A DNA stretch of 64,000 nucleotides from Pirellulales bacterium (lineage in GTDB: Bacteria; Planctomycetota; Planctomycetia; Pirellulales; Thermoguttaceae). The notes beneath the pieces are model-generated. The model worked only from the letters and a program-made list of their open reading frames with translations. It did no database searches and had not been told where the DNA came from. Every line of letters begins with the position of its first letter. The first letter of the stretch is position 1. Of this stretch, positions 31,310 to 49,115 are shown one piece after another. The stretch spans positions 95,684-159,683 of the forward strand of contig CAVQKP010000018.1 in the NCBI GenBank assembly GCA_963713065.1, written 5' to 3'. A program made the translations under genes and the position numbers.

Positions 31310-32692
31310 ATGGGCATCCGCATTGAAGTCCTCCAATATTTCGATCAGTCGAACACCTCGCTTGTGGCCAGAATTCCCCCGGAAGGTTCGGCCGACATCA
31401 AAATCGGCGCACAACTCATCGTCCAGGAGAATCAGGAGGCCGTTTTTTTCTACAACGGCCAGGCGCAGGACACTTTCGAGGCGGGGCGTCATACGCTGGT
31501 GACCGCCAATGTGCCGATCCTTACTCGGTTACTGACGATTCCTTGGGAGAAGTCGCCGTTTCAGGGCCAGGTTTATTTCGTCGGGAAGCAGACGTTTCTC
31601 GACCAGAAGTGGGGAACCCGCGAGCCGATCACGTTCCGCGATCCCGATTTCGGCATGGTGCGGCTGCGGGGGTTCGGCAAATACTCTTTTCGCGTGGCCG
31701 ATGCGAAACTGCTGGTCAACACCCTGGTCGGCACGCAGGGCATCTACACGACCGACTCGGCGACGAACTATTTCCGCGATCTCGTCGTTTCCCGATTGAC
31801 CGACGTGCTGGGCGGGATGAAGAGCGGCGTGCTCGATCTGCCCGGCAAGTACGATCAGGTTGCGCAGGAGACGAAGACCAAGGTCGGCAACGAGTTCGCC
31901 CAATATGGCCTCGAACTGATGGACTTTTTCGTCAATGCAATCTCTCCGCCCGAGGAAGTCCAGAAGGCGATCGACGCCCGGAGTTCGATGGGGGCCGTCG
32001 GCGATTTGAACGCCTATATGAAGTTCCAGGCCGCCAACAGCATGGCCAAGCTCGCCGAGCAGGGCGGCATGGCCGGCGGCGGGATGGGCGCGGGCGCAAT
32101 GGGCATGGGCATGGGCGCGGGTTTCGGCATGATGATGCCCGGCATGATCCAGCAGGCGATGGCCGCTGGGCAGACGGCGACGGTCGCACCGCAAGCTCCG
32201 CCCGCTGCCGCCGGCGTTGCCGGAGCCGCCGCGAGCGCCAAGGTTGCGGGCATGCCCGATTTCTCGCAGCTTGCCCCCGCCGCTCCCGCCGATCCGAAGG
32301 CGATCGTCCGCTCGGTGGCCGCTTCGGCCGGCTACAAGCTCGAAGAGTCGGGCGAGACGATGAAGATCACCGTGCCCATCGGCACGCTGCGGAAGCAGAT
32401 GGTCAACGTCGATTTCGGCCAGAAAGACGCTTCGGGCGCGGCGGTGGTGAATTACTGGTCGATCTGCGGACCTTTTCTGGAGAAGAACGCCGCTTTGCTG
32501 CTGCAATACAACACCACGACGGTCCACGGCGCGTTCGCGGTGAAAAACATCGGCACGACGCCGATGGTCGTCCTGCAAACCAACCAACTTGCCGATAGCC
32601 TCACGCCGCTCGACGTCAGCCGCACGCTCTCGGCCATCGCCTGGCAGGCGGATCAGGTCGAATCGCAGTTGACGGGGGGGGATGAGAATTGA
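31310..32692 (+). CDS. SPFH/Band-7 domain protein (COG4260-like) with a Gly/Met/Ala-rich linker and a C-terminal beta domain
   Basis: N-terminal '[51 protein letters not shown]'. Central low complexity '[28 protein letters not shown]'. Confidence 0.7.
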
Positions 32693-32791
32693 CAAATAAC
32701 CAAATTGTTCCCAGGATCTGCTTGGGAACGCCCTGTTCAGGAGACTCATTTCGCCGCACTGCGAAAAAAGTTTGAAAAGAGAGTAAATGAC

Positions 32792-34060
32792 ATGGACAAA
32801 CTAATACTCGAAAACGTCCGCTGTTTCAAAGGCCGCCATGAAATCCCGCTCGCCCCGCTGACGCTGTTAATTGGCGAAAACAGCACGGGTAAATCAACCT
32901 TATTGTCGGCGATTAGATTGGCTTGGGATATTCGACTTGGAAATCCTTTTCCTGATTTTAACGAAGTACCCTTCGACTGGGGGGCATTCGAACAGGTTTC
33001 TCATCTGGAAGGGAAAAATGGTGATAAACAAAAACAATTTAATATTGGTTTCGAAGAACGAATCGTTGCGCCGTCCGGATCGCAGTGTAATTTTGATATC
33101 GAAGCGATATTTAGACCTCATGGTTCGCAACCTGTAATAGATGAATGGCGGATTTTATACGATTCCATACAAATCCAAGCGTGCATTATCGATCAAAATA
33201 AATTCAATATTCGATTGGAAAAAAACGGCCAACGAGATGAAACTATTTATAATGAAGGATCTATAGGAACTGGATTCTTGGCCTTGGCTACCATTGCAAC
33301 TTTTCTGAGGAAATCAAAGATTTTAACTAAGGAAGAGAGCACGAGTTTTGGGGATATGATTCATCAAAACTGGTTGAGAAGGCTCAATAATCGGCCAAAT
33401 GCCGTCGCACCGATTCGCACAAAACCTAAAAGAACCTACGATAGGTTAAGAGAAACACCAAGTCCCGAAGGCGACCATATTCCCATGGTTTTGGCAAGGA
33501 TTCGATCTTCGGAACCGGAATCTTGGGAAACTCTTACTGAAGAATTGACCTTTTTTGGAAAGTCCAGCGGTTTGTTTTCCGGAGTCGAAATAAAACTGCT
33601 AGGCTCTGAAAGCGATCCTTTTCAAGTACAAATTCTGATCGAAAACGTCAAAGTCAATCTCATTGATGTAGGCTATGGGATTAGTCAAATTCTCCCAATC
33701 ATTGTCGATAGTGTTCTTGCCGAAGAAGGCCAAACTCTTCTCATGCAACAACCTGAAGTCCACCTTCATCCCAAAGCACAAGCAGCGCTAGGAAGTTTCT
33801 TTGGTGCCTTGGTTAGTTATAAAAAGCAAATGATTATAGAGACCCATAGCGACTATCTGATCGACCGCATCCGAGCAGATGTTCGGGATGGCAAAAATAA
33901 TCTTGAACCCAAGGACGTCATTCTGCTTTACTTTGAGCGAAAAGGTGCAGCAGTGCAAATTCATCCTATCGAATTGGATTCGGCGGGAAATTTGATCAAT
34001 GTTCCGTCAGGTTATCGGCAATTCTTTCTCGAAGAAACAGAGCGAATTTTGGGGGGGTAG
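32792..34060 (+). CDS. AAA_21/ABC-type ATPase (AAA_15/AAA_21 core with a DUF3696-like C-terminus), defence-system-type ATPase; sits on a low-GC island
   Basis: Walker A 'LLIGENSTGKSTLLSAI', Walker B/D-loop 'LLMQQPEVHLHP', H-loop 'IETHSDYLIDRIRA'. GC is clearly lower than the flanks (about 40-45% by eye). Confidence 0.8.
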   Translation: MDKLILENVRCFKGRHEIPLAPLTLLIGENSTGKSTLLSAIRLAWDIRLGNPFPDFNEVPFDWGAFEQVSHLEGKNGDKQKQFNIGFEERIVAPSGSQCNFDIEAIFRPHGSQPVIDEWRILYDSIQIQACIIDQNKFNIRLEKNGQRDETIYNEGSIGTGFLALATIATFLRKSKILTKEESTSFGDMIHQNWLRRLNNRPNAVAPIRTKPKRTYDRLRETPSPEGDHIPMVLARIRSSEPESWETLTEELTFFGKSSGLFSGVEIKLLGSESDPFQVQILIENVKVNLIDVGYGISQILPIIVDSVLAEEGQTLLMQQPEVHLHPKAQAALGSFFGALVSYKKQMIIETHSDYLIDRIRADVRDGKNNLEPKDVILLYFERKGAAVQIHPIELDSAGNLINVPSGYRQFFLEETERILGG

Positions 34061-34064
34061 AATT

Positions 34065-34517
34065 TTGTGCATTATCATCGATGCCAATGTAGCTTCTAAA
34101 GTATTTGCCGTCCCCTGTCTTGCTGATTACGTTCCTTTGTGGAGATGGATCGAAAAATAGGATGGCAAGATTGTCTATGGCGGCCGACTCGCGAGTGAGC
34201 TACATAAAGTTCATCAGGCAAGAATTCGGTTACTGGCACTTAATCAGGCTGGGAAAGCCTTGCTGTTGAAAAAAGAAGACGTCAATAAGGAAGAGACACA
34301 TGTGCGAAAAACACTTTCATGCAAATCGAATGATTACCATATTATTGCACTTGCTCGGATAAGCGGAGCGAGGATTCTATGCACAGTTGATCAACACTTG
34401 ATTATAGACTTTAAAAACACCAACATCATTGCGCAACCCCAAGGGCAAATATATAAAAATGCCAATCATGAGCATGTATTAGCTCATTGCCAAGGATGCA
34501 TAGGTAGGCCAAGATAA
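34065..34517 (+). pseudogene. Small PIN-like nuclease ORF (about 150 codons) interrupted by an in-frame TAG at 34158-34160; downstream partner of the ATPase
   Basis: TTG 34065 lies 4 nt after the ATPase stop. 'CIIIDANVASKVF' (beta1 with Asp) ... TAG ... 'RLASELHKV' ... 'SNDYHIIALARISGARILCTVDQHLI' (VapC-like C-terminal acidic motifs). Only frame 0 is open across the whole span, so the stop is not a simple indel artifact. Confidence 0.4.
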
Positions 34518-34553
34518 TCTAATCTTTCTATAGGCGTTAGTTCCCATAACAAG

Positions 34554-36182
34554 GTGGATTCCCGCACGCTCTCCCTGCTTCTGAACACTCTTTATCTCGC
34601 TGCAGCGACCTGTGTCGTTAGCGTGCCGTTGGGAATTCTATTGGCGGGCCTGCTTTGGCGGACCGATTATCCGGGGCGGAATTTTTGGCGGGCGGTTCTG
34701 GCGGGGATGCTTTTCGTGCCGCTGTTCCTGCAAACGGCGGCCTGGCAGGCGGGATTCGGTTTGCAGGGGTGGTTTACTTTGACATTCCAATCGCCGGCAC
34801 TGGTGGACGGCTGGCGGGGGGCGATTTGGATTCACAGCATGGCCGCTCTGCCGTGGGTGGTTTTGATTGTGGGGCTGGGGCTGCGGCGGAGCGAACCGGA
34901 GTTGGAAGAAGCGGCCTTGTTGGATGCCTCGCCGGGAAAAGTTTTTTTCCACGTGACGCTGAAAAACGCGCTGCCGGCCATCGGCGCGGCCGTGCTCTGG
35001 GTGGCGGTCACCACCGCGGGCGAAATGACCGTCACCGATTTCTTCGGCATCCGCACCTATGCCGAAGAACTCTACACCCAAATCGCCATCGGCCAGGAGC
35101 CGGGCGTGCCGCCCCCTTCGGTCCTCCTGGGCGTCGCCCTGACGGTCGTGCTGATACTCGGCGGCGTGAAATTGCTGAGCCTTTTCATCCCCCGCGAACG
35201 ATCGCTTACCATTTCGCCAAGCCTGACATTTCCGCTGGGCCGCTGGCGCTGGCCGGTTGTTTTCATAACCGGTTTGTTTTTACTGCTTATGCTCGGCGTG
35301 CCGCTGGGCAGCTTGATCTACAAGGCCGGCGTCGAAGTCGGCAAAACCGCAACCGGCTATGAGCGCAGTTTTTCGATCGGCAAGTGTTTGACGATGATTG
35401 TTCGCGCGCCGGAGGATTTTTCCAGAGAATTCGAATGGTCGCTCTCGATCGGCGCCGTTTCGGCAACGACCGCGGTGGTCCTGGGAACTTTACTGGCATG
35501 GTGGAGCCGAACTTCATCCGGCGCCCGGCCCAAGGTTGACGCGGACGGGAGAAAAACTTCGAACACACCGCAACATGCCCACGACAAGCGTGGGCATGGC
35601 ACCCGGCATGGCACCGGGAAGTATTTTTTCAATTTTCAATATGCAATTTGCAACCGCCAATTTGCGATCCTCCTTGTCATCGCCGTCCTTTTTTCCCTGC
35701 CCGGCCCGGTACTGAGCCTGATCGTCATCCACCTGCTCAACCGGCCCGAAGCACCGCCGCTCTGCTGGCTTTACGATCATACGATTCTCGCGCCGGCGTT
35801 AGTGTCGATCTTCAAAGGCCTTCCGGCCACGACGCTGGTGATGTGGTACGCCATGCAATCGATTCCGCGCGAGATATTGGAAAGCGCAACGGTCGATGGG
35901 GCCGGATCGTGGGCGCTGCTATTTCGCATCGCCTTGCCCATGCGCTGGCCGGCGGCCGTCGCGGCGTGGCTGATCGCCCTGGCTCTTTCGCTGGGCGATC
36001 TGGCGGCCAGCATTCTCGTCGTGCCGCCGGGCGTGAGCACCCTCTCGATCTCGATTTTCAGCCTCTTGCACTACGGCGTGGAAGATCGCGTGGCCGGCGT
36101 CTGTCTGGCGCTGCTGATGATCTTCGCCGGCCTGGCGTGGGCCACGCTTCTGGTCGCTCGCCGCATGGTAAAATCGCGATAA
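34554..36182 (+). CDS. ABC transporter permease, two-domain fused type (FbpB/ThiP-like)
   Basis: 542 aa, 2x six-TM permease halves with 'EAA'-type loops. The cytoplasmic linker carries an in-frame REP-like insertion (QHAHDKRGHGTRHGTGK). Confidence 0.8.
   Translation: MDSRTLSLLLNTLYLAAATCVVSVPLGILLAGLLWRTDYPGRNFWRAVLAGMLFVPLFLQTAAWQAGFGLQGWFTLTFQSPALVDGWRGAIWIHSMAALPWVVLIVGLGLRRSEPELEEAALLDASPGKVFFHVTLKNALPAIGAAVLWVAVTTAGEMTVTDFFGIRTYAEELYTQIAIGQEPGVPPPSVLLGVALTVVLILGGVKLLSLFIPRERSLTISPSLTFPLGRWRWPVVFITGLFLLLMLGVPLGSLIYKAGVEVGKTATGYERSFSIGKCLTMIVRAPEDFSREFEWSLSIGAVSATTAVVLGTLLAWWSRTSSGARPKVDADGRKTSNTPQHAHDKRGHGTRHGTGKYFFNFQYAICNRQFAILLVIAVLFSLPGPVLSLIVIHLLNRPEAPPLCWLYDHTILAPALVSIFKGLPATTLVMWYAMQSIPREILESATVDGAGSWALLFRIALPMRWPAAVAAWLIALALSLGDLAASILVVPPGVSTLSISIFSLLHYGVEDRVAGVCLALLMIFAGLAWATLLVARRMVKSR
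35574..35618. repeat. REP-like element copy (family A): CATGCCCACGACAAGCGTGGGCATG + 2x GCATGGCACC, inserted in-frame (15 codons) in the permease inter-domain linker
   Basis: The 25-mer is identical to 27063-27087. 35574 is codon-aligned with the permease frame. Confidence 0.6.
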
Positions 36183-36272: not shown

Positions 36273-37415
36273 ATGAATAGATACCGTGGTGCTCGATTCC
36301 TGTTGTTGATCTTGTTTTCTCTCGTCGCCCAAGTTTCGGCGATGGATCACGTCACCTTTCGCCACGACGGAAAAGAGCGGCAGGTGAGCGGCAGGCTGGT
36401 GGTCACGGCGGAGGACGGGGGGCTTCTGCTGCTGGGGCGCGACGGCGCGCTTTGGGCCATCCCGCCGGACGAGCAGGTCAAGCATACGAGCGATGACGGT
36501 CCTTTCAAGCCCTTCACTCGCGAGGAGTTGGCGAAAATACTGCTTGCCGAACTGCCGCCCGGTTTCGAAGTTTTGAACACCGCGCATTACATGATTTTGT
36601 ATGACACCTCGAAACCCTACGCGAGTTGGTGCGGTTCGCTTTTCGAGCGGCTATACATGGCATTCACCAATTATTGGAGCCGGAAGGGTTTTGCGCTCGA
36701 GGCGCCGGAATTTCCGCTGGTGGCGATCGTGTTCGCCGACCGCGGCCGCGTATTTGAAATTTTGCAAGCCCGATTTGGGCGACGCCGGCGGCTCGATCGT
36801 GGGCTATTTCAACTTGATGTCGAATCGGATGACGATGTACGACCTGTCGGGCTTGGAAATGGGCGGCGGTCGCGGGGGCGCGGCACGATGGCGCAGATCA
36901 ACCAGATTCTCTCGCAGCCGCGGTCGCAGCAAACCGTGGCGACGATCGTCCACGAGGCGACGCATCAAATCGCCTTCAATTGCGGATTGCACACGCGGCT
37001 TTCCGATTGCCCTTCGTGGTTCAGCGAGGGGATCGCGCTGTTTTTCGAAACGCCCGACTTGCGGAGCCAGAAAGGGTGGAGCGGCATAGGGGGCATCAAC
37101 TATCCGCGGCTGGAGAGATTTCAAAAACTGCTTCCCACCCGCGCGGCCGATTCGCTGGAAACACTGATCGCGACCGACAAGCGCTTCCACGACACGAAAC
37201 AAGGGCTCGACGCCTACGCCGAAGCCTGGGCGCTGACCTACTTCCTCATCCGCCAAAAGCCCAAGGAATATGTCGCCTACTTGAGACTGCTTTCGCAAAA
37301 GAAGCCGCTCTTGACGGAAACGCCGGAAAAAAGAAAGGCGGAGTTCGAGGATGTTTTCGGCAACCTGCAGAAATTGGACGAAGAATTTTTAAGATACATG
37401 GGACGGGTGAAATAA
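36273..37415 (+). CDS. DUF1570-like secreted protein with HExxH zinc-metallopeptidase motif (two frameshifts)
   Basis: Signal peptide 'MNRYRGARFLLLILFSLVAQVSA'. 'TIVHEATHQIAFN'. The middle piece 36601-37089 (…DLGDAGGSIVGYFNLMSNRMTMYDLSG…) bridges the frames. Confidence 0.6.
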   Translation: MNRYRGARFLLLILFSLVAQVSAMDHVTFRHDGKERQVSGRLVVTAEDGGLLLLGRDGALWAIPPDEQVKHTSDDGPFKPFTREELAKILLAELPPGFEVLNTAHYMILYDTSKPYASWCGSLFERLYMAFTNYWSRKGFALEAPEFPLVAIVFADRGRVFEILQARFGRRRRLDRGLFQLDVESDDDVRPVGLGNGRRSRGRGTMAQINQILSQPRSQQTVATIVHEATHQIAFNCGLHTRLSDCPSWFSEGIALFFETPDLRSQKGWSGIGGINYPRLERFQKLLPTRAADSLETLIATDKRFHDTKQGLDAYAEAWALTYFLIRQKPKEYVAYLRLLSQKKPLLTETPEKRKAEFEDVFGNLQKLDEEFLRYMGRVK

Positions 37416-37421
37416 ATGCTT

Positions 37422-38991
37422 CTATCCCGCCGCCAGGTGCCGTTCGACCTGGCGGATGGCTTCATCGACTTCCCACGTGCGTTCGGCGAGGTGCAGCGGC
37501 TGGCCGGAGGACATCCAGCGATCGACGCGTTTTTGGGCCGAAACTACGGTGCTGTGGCTGCGGCGGCCGAAGAAGTGGCCGATCTCGCTCAAGGCCGCCC
37601 GAGTGTGCTTGCGGGCGAGCCACATGGCCAGCATTCGCGGATGGCTTACGCGCGTCGATTTGTCGTCGGCCTGCAAACTTGCCGGATCGAGGCCGAAAAC
37701 GTCGCAGACCGCCTTTTCGATGTCGCCCAGCCGCACGACGCGGCTGCTGTGGTGGATCATCTCGGCCAGCGCCTCTTCGGCCAACGTCCGCGTGATCGGC
37801 CGCCGCAAGCGCCTCGCTCGTCGCCCGCAAACGGCAAAGCGCGCCGGAAAGCTCCCGGGCGTGGTTCGTGAGTTTTGCGGCGACGTATTCCCGGGCGTCC
37901 TGCGGGATTTGCAGCTTCATCCGCCGCGCCAGTTGCCCGACGATTCCCAGCCGCGTGGCGTAGTCGGGCGGATCGATGCGGCAGACCATGCCGCTGGCCA
38001 GCCGCGTCGTCAATTCCGGCCCCAATTCGGCCAGTTCGACCGGCGAACGGTCGGCGGCGAACACCAGTTGCCGATGTTCGCGCATCAGCGTGTCGATCGT
38101 GTGCAGCAGTTCGACCTGCGTCGCCCGTTTGCCGACCATGAATTGCAGATCGTCGAGAACCAGCAGGCCCACGCCGCGGTACTTGCGGCGGAAACTCGGC
38201 AGGCCGCTGCCGCGCAGCGCCTCGAGAAAATGGCTGGTGAACTGTTCGGCCGAGAGATAGACCGCGGTCACGTTGCGGGAGCGCTTTCGGAATGCCGACC
38301 AGATGCCTTCGAGGAGGTGCGTTTTGCCCACGCTGGTCGAGCCGTGGATCAGCAGCGGCGTGATCTGGCCCGGCTGCCGGATGACCATCTCGGCCGAGGT
38401 CAACGCCAGCTTGTTCGACGGCCCCGCCACGAAAGAATCCAGCGAGGAGAACTTTCGGCCGCCGGCGGCGTTGGAATTCGCACAGTCGCCCGGCTGGGCC
38501 GCCTCGTCCGCGGAAACCGCCGCTATCCGCAACGCCGTCCGTTCCGCCGCGAGGGCGGGCTGCGGGGCGCTGCCGGCTTGATGCAAGGCGGTCTCGGGCA
38601 TGGAATATTTATCTCGAGGGTGAGAAACTATTTCTTGCTCGCTGCGAATGTTTTCTCGTCGCGGCGGATCTATATGGTGGCTGGAGCAATCGGTCGCCAA
38701 GTGCGGAGAATTATTTTCCGTGCGAGCCGTGCGGGCTTTGCCGCCGACGATGTGGAAATCGATGGCCGGGCAGCAGCCCAAAACGTCTTCGCACGCCTCG
38801 GCGATCTGGCGGCGGAAATTTCCTCGAATCCAATCCAGGAAACATTGATTGGGCACGCCGATTCGCAGGGCCTTGCCGTCGAACGACAAATGCGTACTCG
38901 TGCCGAACCACAAATCGTATCGTTTTTTCTCGACCTTGCCGGCCAGCGCATCTTGCAAAGCCGACACGATCTCCCTATCGTCCTTGGTCAC
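37422..38991 (-). CDS. dnaA: Chromosomal replication initiator DnaA (one frameshift near 37.81 kb)
   Basis: GTG start. 'MTKDDREIVSALQDAL...'. AAA+ 'LLIHGSTSVGKTHLL', 'VLDDLQF'. Domain IV 'VFGLDPASLQADDKSTRVSHPRMLAMWLARKHT' lies in the adjacent frame 37422-37808. Confidence 0.9.
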
Positions 38992-44963: not shown

Positions 44964-45217
44964 GGCATTTTATGACCATCCATGCACGGTAGATTAGCAA
45001 AAATCTTGGCAACTGGCAAGCAATCGGATTTATTGAATGCCGGATTGCGGCGATGCACTGCGTGCGGGCGTCAACTCCTCGTCGCCGTTGGCTCCGGGCG
45101 AAACATCCGTATTTCCGAGAAATTAGCGCCCTGCTCTTGCGTCAATATCCCGCCAGCGTTATGGTAGTGCTAGCGGCGGTTTTTGACTTTTTCGAGAGCG
45201 CGAACGCAACTCCCATC

Positions 45218-47999
45218 ATGCCCATATCTTGGAACGAAATCCGCCAGAACGCCATTCATTTTGCCCGCGAGTGGTCCGGCACGCGCAGCGAAAGCGCGGA
45301 AAAACAAACCTTTTGGAACCAGTTCTTCGAAGTGTTCGGCAGCCGGCGGCGAACTGTCGCGAATTTTGAAGAGCAAGTACGGAATCTTCATGGAAACTAC
45401 GATCATATTGATCTTTTCTGGCCCGGAATGTTGTTGGTCGAGCACAAAAGTTTTGGCAAAGATTTGGGTGAAGCAGAATTACAGGCGTCCCGTTATATTG
45501 GCAATCTTATTAGTGCTGGGAGAGATAAGGAATCACCCCGCTATATAATTGTTTCAGATTTTGCACGGATTGAACTCATAGATCTTGAACCGGAAGACCC
45601 AAATAAGAAACAGATCAAAGGCGGTTATAAGATTGAATTTCCGCTGTCGGAATTTCATAAATATATCCATGAATTTGCTTTTATTCCGGGCTATAAACAA
45701 CACCGGTTCGAAGATCAGGACCCGATCAATCTTGAAGCCGTCCGCATTATGGACGATCTTCACGACTCGCTTGCCAATGGCGGTTATAAAGGGCATGAAT
45801 TAGAGCGTTTTTTAGTGCGAGTGCTGTTCTGCCTTTTTGCCGAAGATACAGGCATCTTCGAACGAGAAGCATTTCATCTTTATTTGGAAAACTGCACGAA
45901 GCTAGACGGCTCCGATCTTGGAATTCACTTGGCTCGATTGTTTGAAGTCCTCAATACTCCAGAGGAAAAACGCCAGAAAAATCTGAATGAGACGTTGGCG
46001 GCATTTCCTTATGTAAATGGTGATCTTTTCTCCGAACAATTGGGCTTCGCCGATTTCAACCGAGATATGAGGAATAATTTGCTTGCATGCACTCGTTTTG
46101 ACTGGTCGAGTATTTCGCCCGCCATTTTCGGCTCGCTGTTTCAAGGCATCATGGAATCGCGCGAGCGTCGGCAGATCGGCGCGCATTACACGAGCGAACG
46201 GGACATCTTGAAGGTGATTCGCTCGCTGTTTCTCGACGACCTCCGGGCGGAGTTCGAGAAGATCAAGACGAACAAGAACCAACTCAAGCAGTTCCATCAA
46301 AAGCTGGCGGGCCTAAAATTCCTCGACCCGGCCTGCGGCTGCGGAAATTTCTTGGTGATCGCCTACCGGGAACTGCGCTTGTTGGAAATCGAAGTCCTTA
46401 CCGCGTTGCATTCCGGGCAGAAGCAGTTGGATATCCGCAATCTGTCGCTGGTCGATGTGGACGCCTTTTATGGCATCGAGATCAGCGAGTGGCCCGCACG
46501 GATCGCGGAAGTGGCGATGTGGCTGATGGACCACCAGATGAACGTCAAGCTTTCGGAAACGTTCGGGCAGTATTTCGTCCGCCTGCCGCTGAAGAAATCG
46601 CCCACCATCGTGCTCGGCAATGCGCTGCGGCTCGATTGGAAGAAATTCTGCCGCCGGAAAATTGCAGTTACGTATTAGGGAATCCGCCGTTCGTGGGTAA
46701 ACATCTTCTTACTCAAGAACAAAGTGCGGATATGGACTATGTTTGGCGTAAAACGAATGGAGCCGGATTTCTCGATTATGTAACAGGATGGTATAGAAAA
46801 GCAGCTATATATATCTTAGGAACCAATATAATTGTTGGCTTCGTTTCAACAAATTCCATTACTCAAGGTGAACAAGTTGGAATCCTGTGGGTTGAATTAT
46901 TTCATAAACAAGGAATTAAAATTCATTTTGCACATAGGACATTTTCTTGGGATAGTGAAGCCAGAGGAAAAGCTCATGTTCATGTTGTGATTATCGGATT
47001 TGCCAATTTTGACCCTGAAAATAAACGTCTTTACGATTATGAATCAGATGGCGAAAAGTCACTGTAACTAGGCCAAGAAACATAAGTCCTTATTTAATCG
47101 AAGGCTCCGATATCGCTTTACCAATTCGTCGAAATGCTCTATGCAATGTTCCAGCTATTATCAATGGAAATAAACCAGCAGATGGTGGATTTCTCATTAT
47201 TGAAGATGAAGATAAACAAGGATTTCTTAAAGAAAACCCAGGCATTAAACCATATATCCGACAATTCCTTTGTGCTGAGGAATATTTAAATGGAAAAAAT
47301 AGATGGGTTTTATGGCTAGAAAATGTACCGCCAAAAATCATTCGCGAGAATCCTGGTGTACGGCAAAGAATTGAAGAAGTTCGGAAATTTCGATTGAAGA
47401 GCAAGAAAGAATCGACACGGAGAAGAGCCGAACGGCCTACTTTGTTTGATCAACTTCGCCAGCCAAAAAGCGAATATATGTTAATACCACGTCATTCTTC
47501 GGAAACTCGACGTTATATACCATTTGGATATTTCAGTCCCGAAATAATTATTGGTGATTCCTGCACAGCAATCCCTCATGCATCACTTTATCATTTTGGC
47601 ATTTTATCATCCACGATGCATATGGCATGGGTTCGACAAATTTGCGGTCGATTGAAATCGGATTACCGATATTCCAACAAACTCGTTTACAACAACTATC
47701 CCTGGCCGGAATCGCCGACGAAGAAGCAGAAAACGGCGGTCGAGCAGGCGGCACAAGGGGTGTTGGATGCGCGGGAAGAGTTCTTGTCGCAAGGGGCAAC
47801 GTTGGCCGATCTTTACGATCCGGTTGCGATGCCGCCGAAATTGGTCAAGGCCCATGCCGCGTTGGATCGGGCGGTGGACCGCTGCTACCGCGCGCAGCCC
47901 TTCACCAGCGAGCGGCAGCGCGTCGAGTTTCTCTTCGCCCTCTACGAAAAACTCACCACGCCCTTAATCGCCGAAGCAGGAAAGAAACGGAAAAAGTAG
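45218..47999 (+). CDS. MmeI-family single-chain Type IIL restriction-modification enzyme (N-terminal PD-ExK endonuclease + gamma-class N6-adenine MTase + target recognition domain); two frameshifts
   Basis: 'MPISWNEIRQNAIHFAREW', nuclease 'DLFWPGMLLVEHKSFGKDL', 'GAHYTSE', 'FLDPACGCGNFL', 'GNPPFVG', 'SITQGEQV', C-terminal 'YRYSNKLVYNNYPWP...LADLYDPVAMPPKLVKAH'. Pieces 45053-46678, 46489-47067 and 47090-47999. Confidence 0.8.
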
Positions 48000-48220: not shown

Positions 48221-48799
48221 CTAACCAATTGCTTCTTTCCGCGCTCTTTCGAGCAGATCATCCACGTGAAGCTCCACGGCCCATTTTTTCAAATAGTCCC
48301 CGTCGAGATTTTCGCCTTGGACCTTCATCACCCCAAGAACATCGCTCCATTGGCGCTCGGAGATTTCATCGCCGAGGCGATACCATTCGAGCTTGCTGAG
48401 GATCGTATCTTCCGCGGAAGCGACATAAAATATTTTCGAAGAATCCTCAAGGATCTTTCGGGAGTTTTTCCGTTCGAAAGCCAGACGGCTGTAGGCTGAC
48501 GCCTTCGAAGCGAAAACATCCACCTTGAACATCGTTGCGAGGTGAATCAGATTGAAACATGCCCTTCTTCGAATGGCGTCCGTAATCGTATTTACGTTGA
48601 GATAATACGCTTTGCCCAACATCTCCGCCAAAGGAGCTGCATGCTCGAACCTGAGATCGGCAACCAAATCAGCATCCGCGGTGCTTCGAATCACGCCATG
48701 AGCGGAGCTTGCCACGGAACCGCCAATATAATAGGGAATTCCAAGTTTTTCGAAAACCTCGACAACAGGAACAACAGCCTGGATCATGTCAAGAATCAT
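48221..48799 (-). CDS. Nucleotidyltransferase-fold (Pol-beta superfamily, MNT-like) protein, 192 aa
   Basis: 'YIGGSVASSAHGVIRSTADADLVADL' is the hG[GS]...D.D minimal NTase motif. Its start overlaps the stop of the upstream small ORF (ATGA). Confidence 0.55.
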   Translation of the reverse strand: MILDMIQAVVPVVEVFEKLGIPYYIGGSVASSAHGVIRSTADADLVADLRFEHAAPLAEMLGKAYYLNVNTITDAIRRRACFNLIHLATMFKVDVFASKASAYSRLAFERKNSRKILEDSSKIFYVASAEDTILSKLEWYRLGDEISERQWSDVLGVMKVQGENLDGDYLKKWAVELHVDDLLERARKEAIG

Positions 48800-49044
48800 G
48801 CGTGCCCTTTTATTAAGTAAACGCGTACATCATCCGCTAAATGTTTGCCGTAAGTGATTTCAACCCAGCGGAGGCCGACCTCTTCAACGCTCATGCCCGG
48901 ATTCGCGTCAGCAATGCCTTGACGGGAAAACGCGATGAGCGTCGCAGTCAGTGATCGCATCAAGGAAATGCGTTTGGCAACGCTCGCTTGGCGTATAAGC
49001 TCCAATTGCACTTTTTCAGCATCAGGATGAGTATCGGTAAGCAT
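48796..49044 (-). CDS. Small protein (82 aa) translationally coupled to the NTase gene; putative cognate partner or antitoxin-like
   Basis: ATG 49044 with AAGGA 9 nt upstream. 4-nt overlap with the NTase start. No recognisable domain. Confidence 0.4.
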   Translation of the reverse strand: MLTDTHPDAEKVQLELIRQASVAKRISLMRSLTATLIAFSRQGIADANPGMSVEEVGLRWVEITYGKHLADDVRVYLIKGHA

Positions 49045-49115
49045 GGGAATATCCTTATAATCAATCGGGCGGCATATTCTTATTATTGCAAACGGCTGCC
49101 ATATCAACAAGACAA

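Follow-up and report, generated by a model that had tools for sequence, protein, structure and literature searches.

Introduction

In the anti-phage systems Septu and PARIS, an ATPase regulates a bound nuclease by a conformational change or by releasing it (PMC12065111). In Menshen (NsnABC; Millman et al., 2022, as cited in PMC12065111), AlphaFold 3 models show the two DUF3696 tails of an NsnB dimer clamping the PIN-like domain of NsnC, a protein with an N-terminal PIN-like domain and a C-terminal toxin or nuclease in which all major PIN-like families lack catalytic residues; the Walker-B position of NsnB reads EN (Glu-Asn) (PMC12065111). HEC-03 (Hma-embedded candidate 3) of Pseudomonas cichorii encodes a small protein with a VapC-like PIN fold; both of its genes are needed for phage defence in Escherichia coli and the system is toxic when induced, while inserts 1 and 2 of the ATP-binding cassette (ABC) protein have been proposed to set specificity (Payne et al., bioRxiv 10.1101/2024.01.29.577857). 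Here we describe a two-gene island of low guanine plus cytosine (GC) content, encoding an ABC ATPase and a PIN nuclease, in a 64-kb stretch (hereafter the window) of contig CAVQKP010000018.1 from a Pirellulales bacterium. On balance, we take this island to be a horizontally acquired, self-contained cassette of ABC ATPase and nuclease effector, with HEC-03 as its nearest characterised analogue and with an ATPase that is a cousin of NsnB.

Results

Conservation of the ATPase–PIN pair

Both the identity of the two genes and the conservation of their pairing can be stated with high confidence. The PIN family was found in at least 483 species genomes (one genome per species being scanned), with hosts among the matches listed in the Planctomycetota, Acidobacteriota, Chloroflexota, Alpha-, Gamma- and Deltaproteobacteria, Spirochaetia, Verrucomicrobiota, Latescibacterota, Rhodothermales and Acidimicrobiia, all of these listed records being metagenome-assembled genomes (MAGs). 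We retrieved 80 loci from this set and detected the ATPase gene directly upstream of the PIN gene, on the same strand, in 78 of them, which is far beyond chance; the two exceptions were L052, which lies at the end of a contig, and L043, where the copy is truncated. The gap between the two genes was mostly of −4 to +16 nucleotides. When the neighbouring open reading frames (ORFs) of the 80 loci were clustered, only the ATPase and PIN families recurred, the next family being present in six loci; the system thus has no third component, NsnA-like or otherwise. Pairwise distances of the ATPases and of the PIN proteins were correlated (Mantel r = 0.75, p ≤ 0.001, n = 73), indicating that the two genes are inherited and transferred together. 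A first-pass annotation of this DNA had considered the pairing an unusual architecture and, by implication, a rarity; neither idea survived, as the pair is a widely conserved operon and HEC-03 has the same layout of ABC ATPase and PIN protein.

In 53 of 70 other loci the GC content of the module was lower than that of its flanks by 5 points or more (mean −8.4), so that the module looks foreign in most of its hosts and not in this genome alone. The 133 nearest-neighbour ORFs in other genomes belonged mostly to housekeeping families and gave few PADLOC matches. Neither the viral contigs of IMG/VR nor the plasmids of PLSDB contained the PIN family, and plasmids and phages carried only distant DUF3696 ATPases (~26–35% identity). 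With its housekeeping neighbours and no viral or plasmid copies, the cassette thus inserts on its own rather than residing in defence islands, a behaviour also reported for the HEC and PDC systems (Payne et al., bioRxiv 10.1101/2024.01.29.577857).

Tandem cassettes were present in two of the retrieved loci, i.e. three consecutive pairs sharing 57–69% identity in a Rhodothermales MAG (L080, OZ241874.1, 2098–8987) and two pairs sharing ~35% identity in an Acidimicrobiia MAG (L049, 4638–8318), and such arrays suggest that paralogues diversify in specificity. Two of the distant DUF3696 ATPases (~26% identity) are encoded on plasmids of Aeromonas veronii (L081, NZ_AP022291.1) and Bacillus pacificus (L082, CP093425.1), where each gene overlaps a downstream hypothetical gene (177 and 352 amino acids respectively) and lies beside an AbiEii/AbiGii system. 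As these plasmid ATPases also have an overlapping downstream gene, a DUF3696 ATPase followed by a variable effector suggests itself as a general theme.

The ABC ATPase

Gene 1 encodes an intact ABC ATPase for which the length and motifs given by the first-pass annotation proved correct (Table 1); the protein carries GENSTGKST, LLMQQPEVHLHP and ETHSDYLIDRIRAD. It matched the Pfam families AAA_15 (5.9e-24), AAA_21 (1.6e-16) and AAA_23, and residues 372–407 matched DUF3696 just below the cut-off (E 8e-4; 20.0 bits, the cut-off being 22), a family (PF12476) that is annotated in many close homologues. The best PADLOC models were NsnB of Menshen (7.3e-49, over the full length, residues 1–408), PDC-M55A (7.3e-36), HEC-03B (3.6e-29) and AriA, followed by many GajA, HEC-01A and AbiLi models. 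Matches to PtuA (1.9e-5) and OLD (5.6e-11) were confined to the ATPase motifs, and NCBIfam models gave only sub-threshold matches, limited to the P-loop and far below the cut-offs. The earlier assignment of this protein to the ATPase class of Septu, PARIS, Gabija and AbiL therefore stands at the superfamily level, whereas its closest relatives are NsnB, PDC-M55A and the HEC-03 ATPase.

Residue conservation was scored in 73 PIN-paired family members. Besides the invariant positions listed in Table 1, R209 and H326 were invariant, as was a G-Y-G signature-like motif except for a change of Y295 to F in one member, and the window ATPase has every family-invariant residue. Walker A, the signature-like motif, the H-loop and the ABC fold, all features of the ABC superfamily (OLD-ABC/AAA_15 branch), are present; the canonical Walker-B Asp and catalytic Glu (hhhhDE) are absent, with Gln-Gln (Q319-Q320) in their place, followed by P321-E322. 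In ABC ATPases, Walker-B mutants with Gln in place of Glu bind ATP but hydrolyse it poorly. Because the Asp-Glu pair is replaced here by an invariant Gln-Gln, the protein may work as a switch that binds ATP and hydrolyses it slowly or not at all.

Sequence variability was unevenly distributed along the ATPase. Residues 71–200, modelled as a beta-sheet followed by helices, were hypervariable (column entropies of 2.9–3.4 bits, compared with ~1.4–1.7 bits elsewhere in the protein), while the DUF3696-like tail was conserved (1.74 bits). This division suggests a constant surface for docking the effector and a variable one for sensing, with residues 71–200 as the candidate trigger-sensing surface and the tail as the proposed docking site for the PIN protein, by analogy with the NsnB–NsnC models.

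The PIN nuclease

The start codon of gene 2 lies 4 nucleotides past the ATPase stop and aligns with Met1 of the homologues (MCxIIDANVA), the intact ones being of ~150 amino acids and up to 59% identical. The product has the alpha/beta/alpha fold of PIN proteins and the four acidic active-site residues (D-E-D-D; D6, E45, D90 and D109), in agreement with the VapC/PIN-like character noted in the first-pass annotation. Across 185 diverse family members these positions were almost without exception conserved (Table 1), with S88 and H92 also among the invariant positions, and such a set of acidic residues is, as judged from the alignment, the signature of an active PIN nuclease.

An exhaustive search with the family profile recovered 2060 representatives of 50%-identity clusters at E ≤ 1e-3 (1696 at E ≤ 1e-10), the top 150 of which were all single-domain proteins of 139–193 amino acids. 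The window protein scored below threshold with the Pfam models PIN (14.8 bits; cut-off 23.6) and PIN_3 (14.3 bits; cut-off 27), and 18 of 33 relatives matched Pfam PIN at E ≤ 0.01 (best 2.3e-7). None of the PADLOC, NCBIfam and Pfam models takes in the window PIN family at threshold. The description of the module as uncharacterised hence holds in this narrow sense, i.e. for its PIN family, and fails for the layout, which is known from HEC-03.

An in-frame stop codon in the PIN gene

Gene 2 contains a single in-frame TAG at codon 32, within the run GAAAAATAGG (Table 1); its position and the point that an indel does not explain it, both made in the first-pass annotation, were confirmed. Codon 32 falls in a loop of variable sequence, in which 65 of the 185 relatives have G, 35 have K, 31 have R and 12 have P; the closest relatives have K, so that AAG to TAG is the simplest change. 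The stop follows the catalytic D6 and precedes E45, D90 and D109, and the next in-frame canonical start is the TTG at 34260; D6 is thus cut off from the other three residues, and the sequence as written cannot yield an active nuclease. With K restored, the window protein scored 217 bits against the family hidden Markov model (HMM), ranking 11th of 185 (median 190). The ORF keeps every invariant residue and displays no decay besides the TAG, which points to either a very recent inactivation or a base-call error.

Among the 80 loci, a premature stop in the PIN gene was detected once (L016), and the ATPase was broken or lost in four or five (among them L003, L017, L022 and L043). TAG is an ordinary stop here, ending the ATPase gene, the DacZ gene and fragments of an MmeI-like gene, and the window has no suppressor tRNA; reassignment of the codon was ruled out on these grounds. 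An exact-pattern scan of metagenome contigs around the TAG gave no match and a protein-based metagenome scan for the locus recovered only a 47% relative. As no independent copy of the locus turned up, the ancestral codon 32 is deduced from the family only.

Composition, borders and neighbours of the island

The two genes span 32792–34517 (1726 nucleotides) with 42.4% GC and a GC content at third codon positions (GC3) of 0.39, the ATPase gene (42.6% GC, GC3 0.390) and the PIN gene (41.9% GC, GC3 0.391) being alike. In segments of 300 nucleotides, GC was 0.38–0.45 over ~32800–34600 and ~0.56–0.73 in the flanks, and GC3 was 0.70–0.80 in neighbouring genes of the window (those for the SPFH protein, ABC permease, DUF1570 protein, DnaA and DacZ). 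The island ranked fourth lowest in GC among 1246 segments of equal length slid along the window and the three lower ones overlap it, so that it is effectively the lowest-GC stretch of its length, ~3.4 sd below the mean (0.579, sd 0.045). The contrast in GC and GC3 with the neighbouring genes shows that the island was acquired horizontally, and both the AT-richness and the acquisition proposed in the first-pass annotation were borne out.

An SPFH/Band_7 protein gene lies upstream and an ABC permease gene downstream. No tRNA gene was found in the window, no integrase or convincing flanking repeats were found at the island borders, promoter-like and terminator-like sites at the island did not exceed shuffled expectation, and no Rfam family reached threshold anywhere in the window. 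An exact 12-nucleotide direct repeat, CCGCACGCTCTC, occurs inside the 3′ end of the SPFH gene (32620–32631) and just inside the 5′ end of the permease gene (34562–34573). This was the only repeat bracketing the island. It is probably fortuitous, with ~0.2 such chance matches expected in the region, and could alternatively be a recombination scar. A short hairpin, TTCCCAGGATCTGCTTGGGAA, follows the SPFH stop.

The SPFH, ATPase, PIN and permease genes are all on the + strand, and only 36 nucleotides separate the PIN stop from the permease gene, which starts with GTG. No terminator-like site was detected on that strand along this stretch, and expression of the permease may now be reliant on read-through from the inserted cassette. 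The permease ORF (34554–36182) contains a lower-GC, insert-like segment (~35500–35700; residues ~320–375; rich in His, Lys and Gly) between two BPD_transp_1 halves. Further downstream, the gene for a DUF1570 protein, a family first described in Rhodopirellula, adjoins dnaA (36273–37415 and 37462–38991 respectively), and this neighbourhood would suggest that the host belongs to the Planctomycetota and that the locus is close to the replication origin.

A second low-GC locus in the window

A second, milder low-GC stretch (0.45–0.50) at 45053–47999 contains an MmeI-family type IIL restriction-modification enzyme in three pieces (Table 1), with frameshifts near 46658–46675 and 47043–47066, each beside short A-runs. 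The damage reflects either the decay of a second acquired defence gene or assembly errors at AT-rich homopolymers, and its position at A-runs bears on the trust that can be placed in the TAG of the PIN gene. Adjoining the MmeI-like gene on the − strand (48221–49110), two overlapping small genes (192 and 104 amino acids) are laid out like a toxin-antitoxin or nucleotidyltransferase-type pair; neither has a Pfam match.

Table 1. Coordinates of the low-GC island, its two genes and their functional positions, and of the MmeI-like gene pieces. Positions are those of the window; conservation is given for 73 PIN-paired ATPases and for 185 PIN-family members.
Feature	Position	Strand	Remarks
Low-GC island	32693–34553	.	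exactly fills the gap between the SPFH stop (32692) and the ABC permease start (34554)
Gene 1, intact ABC ATPase, DUF3696-tailed (NsnB/HEC-03 ATPase) clade	32792–34060	+	422 amino acids; stop TAG
Walker A/P-loop GENSTGKST, residues 28–36	32873–32899	+	G28, N30, S31, G33 and K34 invariant (73/73)
Hypervariable insert region, residues 71–200	33002–33391	+	entropies given in the text
Walker-B region TLLMQQPEVHLHP, residues 315–327	33734–33772	+	Q319, Q320, P321 and E322 invariant (73/73)
H-loop motif ETHSD, residues 350–354	33839–33853	+	E350 and H352 invariant (73/73)
C-terminal DUF3696-like tail, residues 366–422	33887–34057	+	conserved
Gene 2, stand-alone VapC-like PIN nuclease gene	34065–34517	+	start TTG; TAA at 34515–34517; 150 sense codons and one stop inside
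D6 codon, first PIN acidic residue	34080–34082	+	5′ of the stop; D in 181/185
In-frame TAG, codon 32	34158–34160	+	sole in-frame stop of gene 2
E45 codon, second PIN acidic residue	34197–34199	+	E in 184/185; aligns with E52 of the HEC-03 PIN family
D90 codon, in SNDxH(I/V)IALAR	34332–34334	+	D in 185/185; aligns with D110, which is invariant in the HEC-03 PIN family
D109 codon	34389–34391	+	D in 184/185; aligns with D129 of the HEC-03 PIN family
D115 codon, fifth invariant acidic residue	34407–34409	+	D in 185/185
MmeI piece 1	45053–46678		MmeI_N, helicase spacer, methyltransferase 1–128
MmeI piece 2	46489–47067		methyltransferase 134–259
MmeI piece 3	47043–47999 (open frame)		target recognition domain and C-terminal domain

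Discussion

A putative defence cassette and its possible mode of action

We place the cassette in the HEC-03/Menshen-NsnB group of ABC-ATPase-controlled effectors, as a diverged branch that has so far gone untracked, and by analogy with these systems its role is probably anti-phage defence. How it would act is more tentative, sequestration and release of the effector being one possible mechanism. An oligomer of the ATPase would use its conserved C-terminal tails to hold the PIN ribonuclease in an inactive state. A phage-derived trigger would be sensed by the hypervariable insert (residues 71–200), and a nucleotide-dependent conformational change would then activate or release the PIN protein, which would cut cellular or phage RNA and halt the infection in an abortive manner. 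In this scheme the RNA target and the role of the nucleotide are both taken from the analogy.

Several points weigh against a defence cassette of this kind. The binding of the PIN protein by the ATPase and the trigger are likewise argued by analogy, and the Gln-Gln Walker B leaves the ATPase chemistry uncertain. Housekeeping neighbours lend little defence-island support, and the viral contigs and plasmids scanned were free of the PIN family. The PIN protein is only remotely similar to that of HEC-03, whose PADLOC model does not see it, and HEC-03 has been validated experimentally whereas the window family is known from its sequences. Lastly, a selfish, toxin-antitoxin-like role would give the same genomic signature.

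Alternative explanations

The last of these points leads to a competing explanation, an addiction module in which the PIN protein is the toxin and the ATPase its neutraliser, with no dedicated anti-phage role. The VapC-like fold and an active site kept intact across the family would suit such a toxin, as would a compact cassette that moves among unrelated housekeeping contexts as a low-GC insertion, with few defence genes adjoining it and, as with VapBC, several paralogous copies per genome. The partner, however, is no small DNA-binding protein of the VapB kind but an ABC ATPase of 420 amino acids that bears a hypervariable insert, and the regulator-first order, the tight coupling and the ATPase clade all match the validated HEC-03 and Menshen systems. 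We therefore regard a purely selfish module as rather improbable, bearing in mind that addiction and defence are not mutually exclusive. A degraded Menshen system, without NsnA and with NsnC cut short of its C-terminal effector domain, could account for the NsnB model being the best PADLOC match and for a PIN fold next to the ATPase, given that NsnC starts with a PIN-like domain docked on the DUF3696 tails of NsnB. Against this, there is no ParB-DUF262 gene in the window and none recurs in the 80 loci, no PADLOC NsnC model matches, and members of the PIN family always stand alone and, unlike NsnC, have their catalytic residues; maintenance of the two-gene state in at least 483 genomes marks a system in its own right and not a remnant. 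This explanation was rejected as very improbable. Still less credible is a housekeeping ATPase of the ABC, SMC or RecF type followed by an unrelated small ORF, which was dismissed in view of the P-loop-only NCBIfam matches far below cut-offs, the pairing in 78 of 80 loci, synteny that is not conserved beyond the pair, the foreign composition and the lack of a coiled coil in the ATPase. None of the outcomes that the first-pass annotation had named as contradicting its proposal (i.e. a housekeeping family, no PIN fold or no GC difference) was found.

The TAG raises a separate question, namely whether the cassette still works in its host. An assembly or base-call error, or partial read-through, would fit a PIN protein that is otherwise flawless, with all invariant residues and a score in the top decile of the family HMM scores, and in which a single base within an A-run separates AAG from TAG; the frameshifts beside short A-runs in the MmeI-like gene, the other low-GC defence gene, could similarly mean that AT-rich homopolymers are error-prone in this assembly. 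Homopolymer sequencing errors are usually indels, whereas the lesion in gene 2 is a substitution. Moreover, TAG serves as a true stop in neighbouring genes and the window lacks a suppressor tRNA, real decay of the PIN gene or the ATPase gene was detected in other loci of the family, and selection could plausibly have favoured loss of the effector, given the toxicity of induced HEC-03. We thus think that the TAG is probably a true nonsense mutation and that an error or read-through is the unlikelier case, although one to be kept in mind. This genome carries one or perhaps two defence loci of horizontal origin, which appear to be in decay.

Significance of the family

With ~2000 clusters at 50% identity and a presence in at least 483 species genomes, the family is a large one that extends over many phyla of mostly uncultured bacteria, and adding the cassette to catalogues of the PADLOC type would enlarge the known set of ABC-ATPase-controlled nuclease systems. 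It also provides a simple two-protein model for the hold and release of a PIN effector by DUF3696 tails, which for Menshen has so far only been predicted. The presence of an active stand-alone PIN protein here, as opposed to the inactive NsnC adaptor, offers a testable evolutionary link between HEC-03-type systems and Menshen. One speculative scenario, which we consider unlikely as it stands but worth stating, is that the family represents the Menshen/HEC-03 lineage in its minimal, possibly ancestral, form, in which a DUF3696-tailed ATPase docks an active PIN protein; the inactive PIN domain of NsnC would then be a fossil effector, kept as a docking adaptor after fusion to a toxin domain and the gain of NsnA, and the Gln-Gln ATPase would be a hydrolysis-deficient switch.

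Comparison with known systems

The cassette resembles Septu (PtuAB), PARIS (AriAB), Gabija (GajAB) and AbiL in combining an ATPase of the OLD-ABC/AAA_15-AAA_21 type with a nuclease effector, as reflected in the AriA, GajA and AbiLi matches, and differs from them in that the effector is a PIN protein and not an HNH, Toprim or DUF4435 protein. Unlike VapBC, it has no VapB-like antitoxin, the upstream partner being the 422-amino-acid ABC ATPase, and the family motifs SNDxH(I/V)IALAR, DFKN and a C-terminal H..C differ from the Pfam PIN models.

With Menshen it shares an NsnB-type ATPase, i.e. an AAA_15 ABC core with a DUF3696-type tail, and a PIN-fold protein encoded immediately downstream; the window ATPase and NsnB both have Arg at the position of the Q-loop Gln, a signature of the form GxG and a Walker B that departs from the canonical one. 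It departs from Menshen in lacking an NsnA (ParB-DUF262 plus ParBDB) gene, the upstream position being taken by the SPFH/Band_7 gene, and in its stand-alone PIN protein with catalytic residues, where the PIN domain of NsnC is an inactive adaptor fused to a C-terminal nuclease. In addition, the PIN protein and the ATPase co-evolve here, whereas the domains of NsnC are extensively shuffled.

The closest likeness is to HEC-03, in which the gene for a "DUF3696 domain-containing protein" (WP_025259138, 322707–324092) is followed, with a short overlap, by that for a protein of ~157 amino acids (WP_025259137, 324079–324552). Both systems thus consist of a DUF3696-type ABC ATPase (~420–460 amino acids) and a tightly coupled, same-strand, stand-alone VapC-like PIN protein (~150–157 amino acids). 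The window and HEC-03 ATPases align by BLASTP only in their C-terminal halves (E 1e-21, 29% identity over 170 amino acids), the inserts being unrelated, and the PADLOC ATPase model of HEC-03 similarly covers residues 160–408 of the window protein; the motifs DVG(F/Y)GxSQ, xQPExHLHP and E(S/T)HS(D/E) are common to both, with QQPE at the Walker-B position in the window family and EQPE in HEC-03. For the PIN proteins, hhalign aligned the two family profiles over 114 columns (E 4.6e-5, probability 69%) and paired D6, E45, D90 and D109 of the window family with D5, E52, D110 and D129 of HEC-03.

The PADLOC PIN model of HEC-03 (HEC-03A) gave no match with the window protein or with 33 family members; in controls it recovered the HEC-03 PIN protein itself (9.4e-86) and did not match an intact homologue (P0001) of the window family. 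In PADLOC-DB v2.0.0 (PDLC04147 and PDLC04148), the name HEC-03A belongs to the PIN model (159 positions) and HEC-03B to the ATPase model (458 positions); the preprint uses the labels the other way round, with HEC-03A for the ATPase. PADLOC is hence blind to the cassette because it has no model for its PIN partner, and since the PIN protein falls outside the HEC-03 PIN family, we do not file the cassette under HEC-03. Unlike HEC-03, the window family occurs in environmental lineages that are uncultured, and PLSDB plasmids have no copy of it. The layout of ABC ATPase and PIN protein is therefore already known from HEC-03, and what the profile comparisons indicate to be new here is a PIN family distinct from that of HEC-03.

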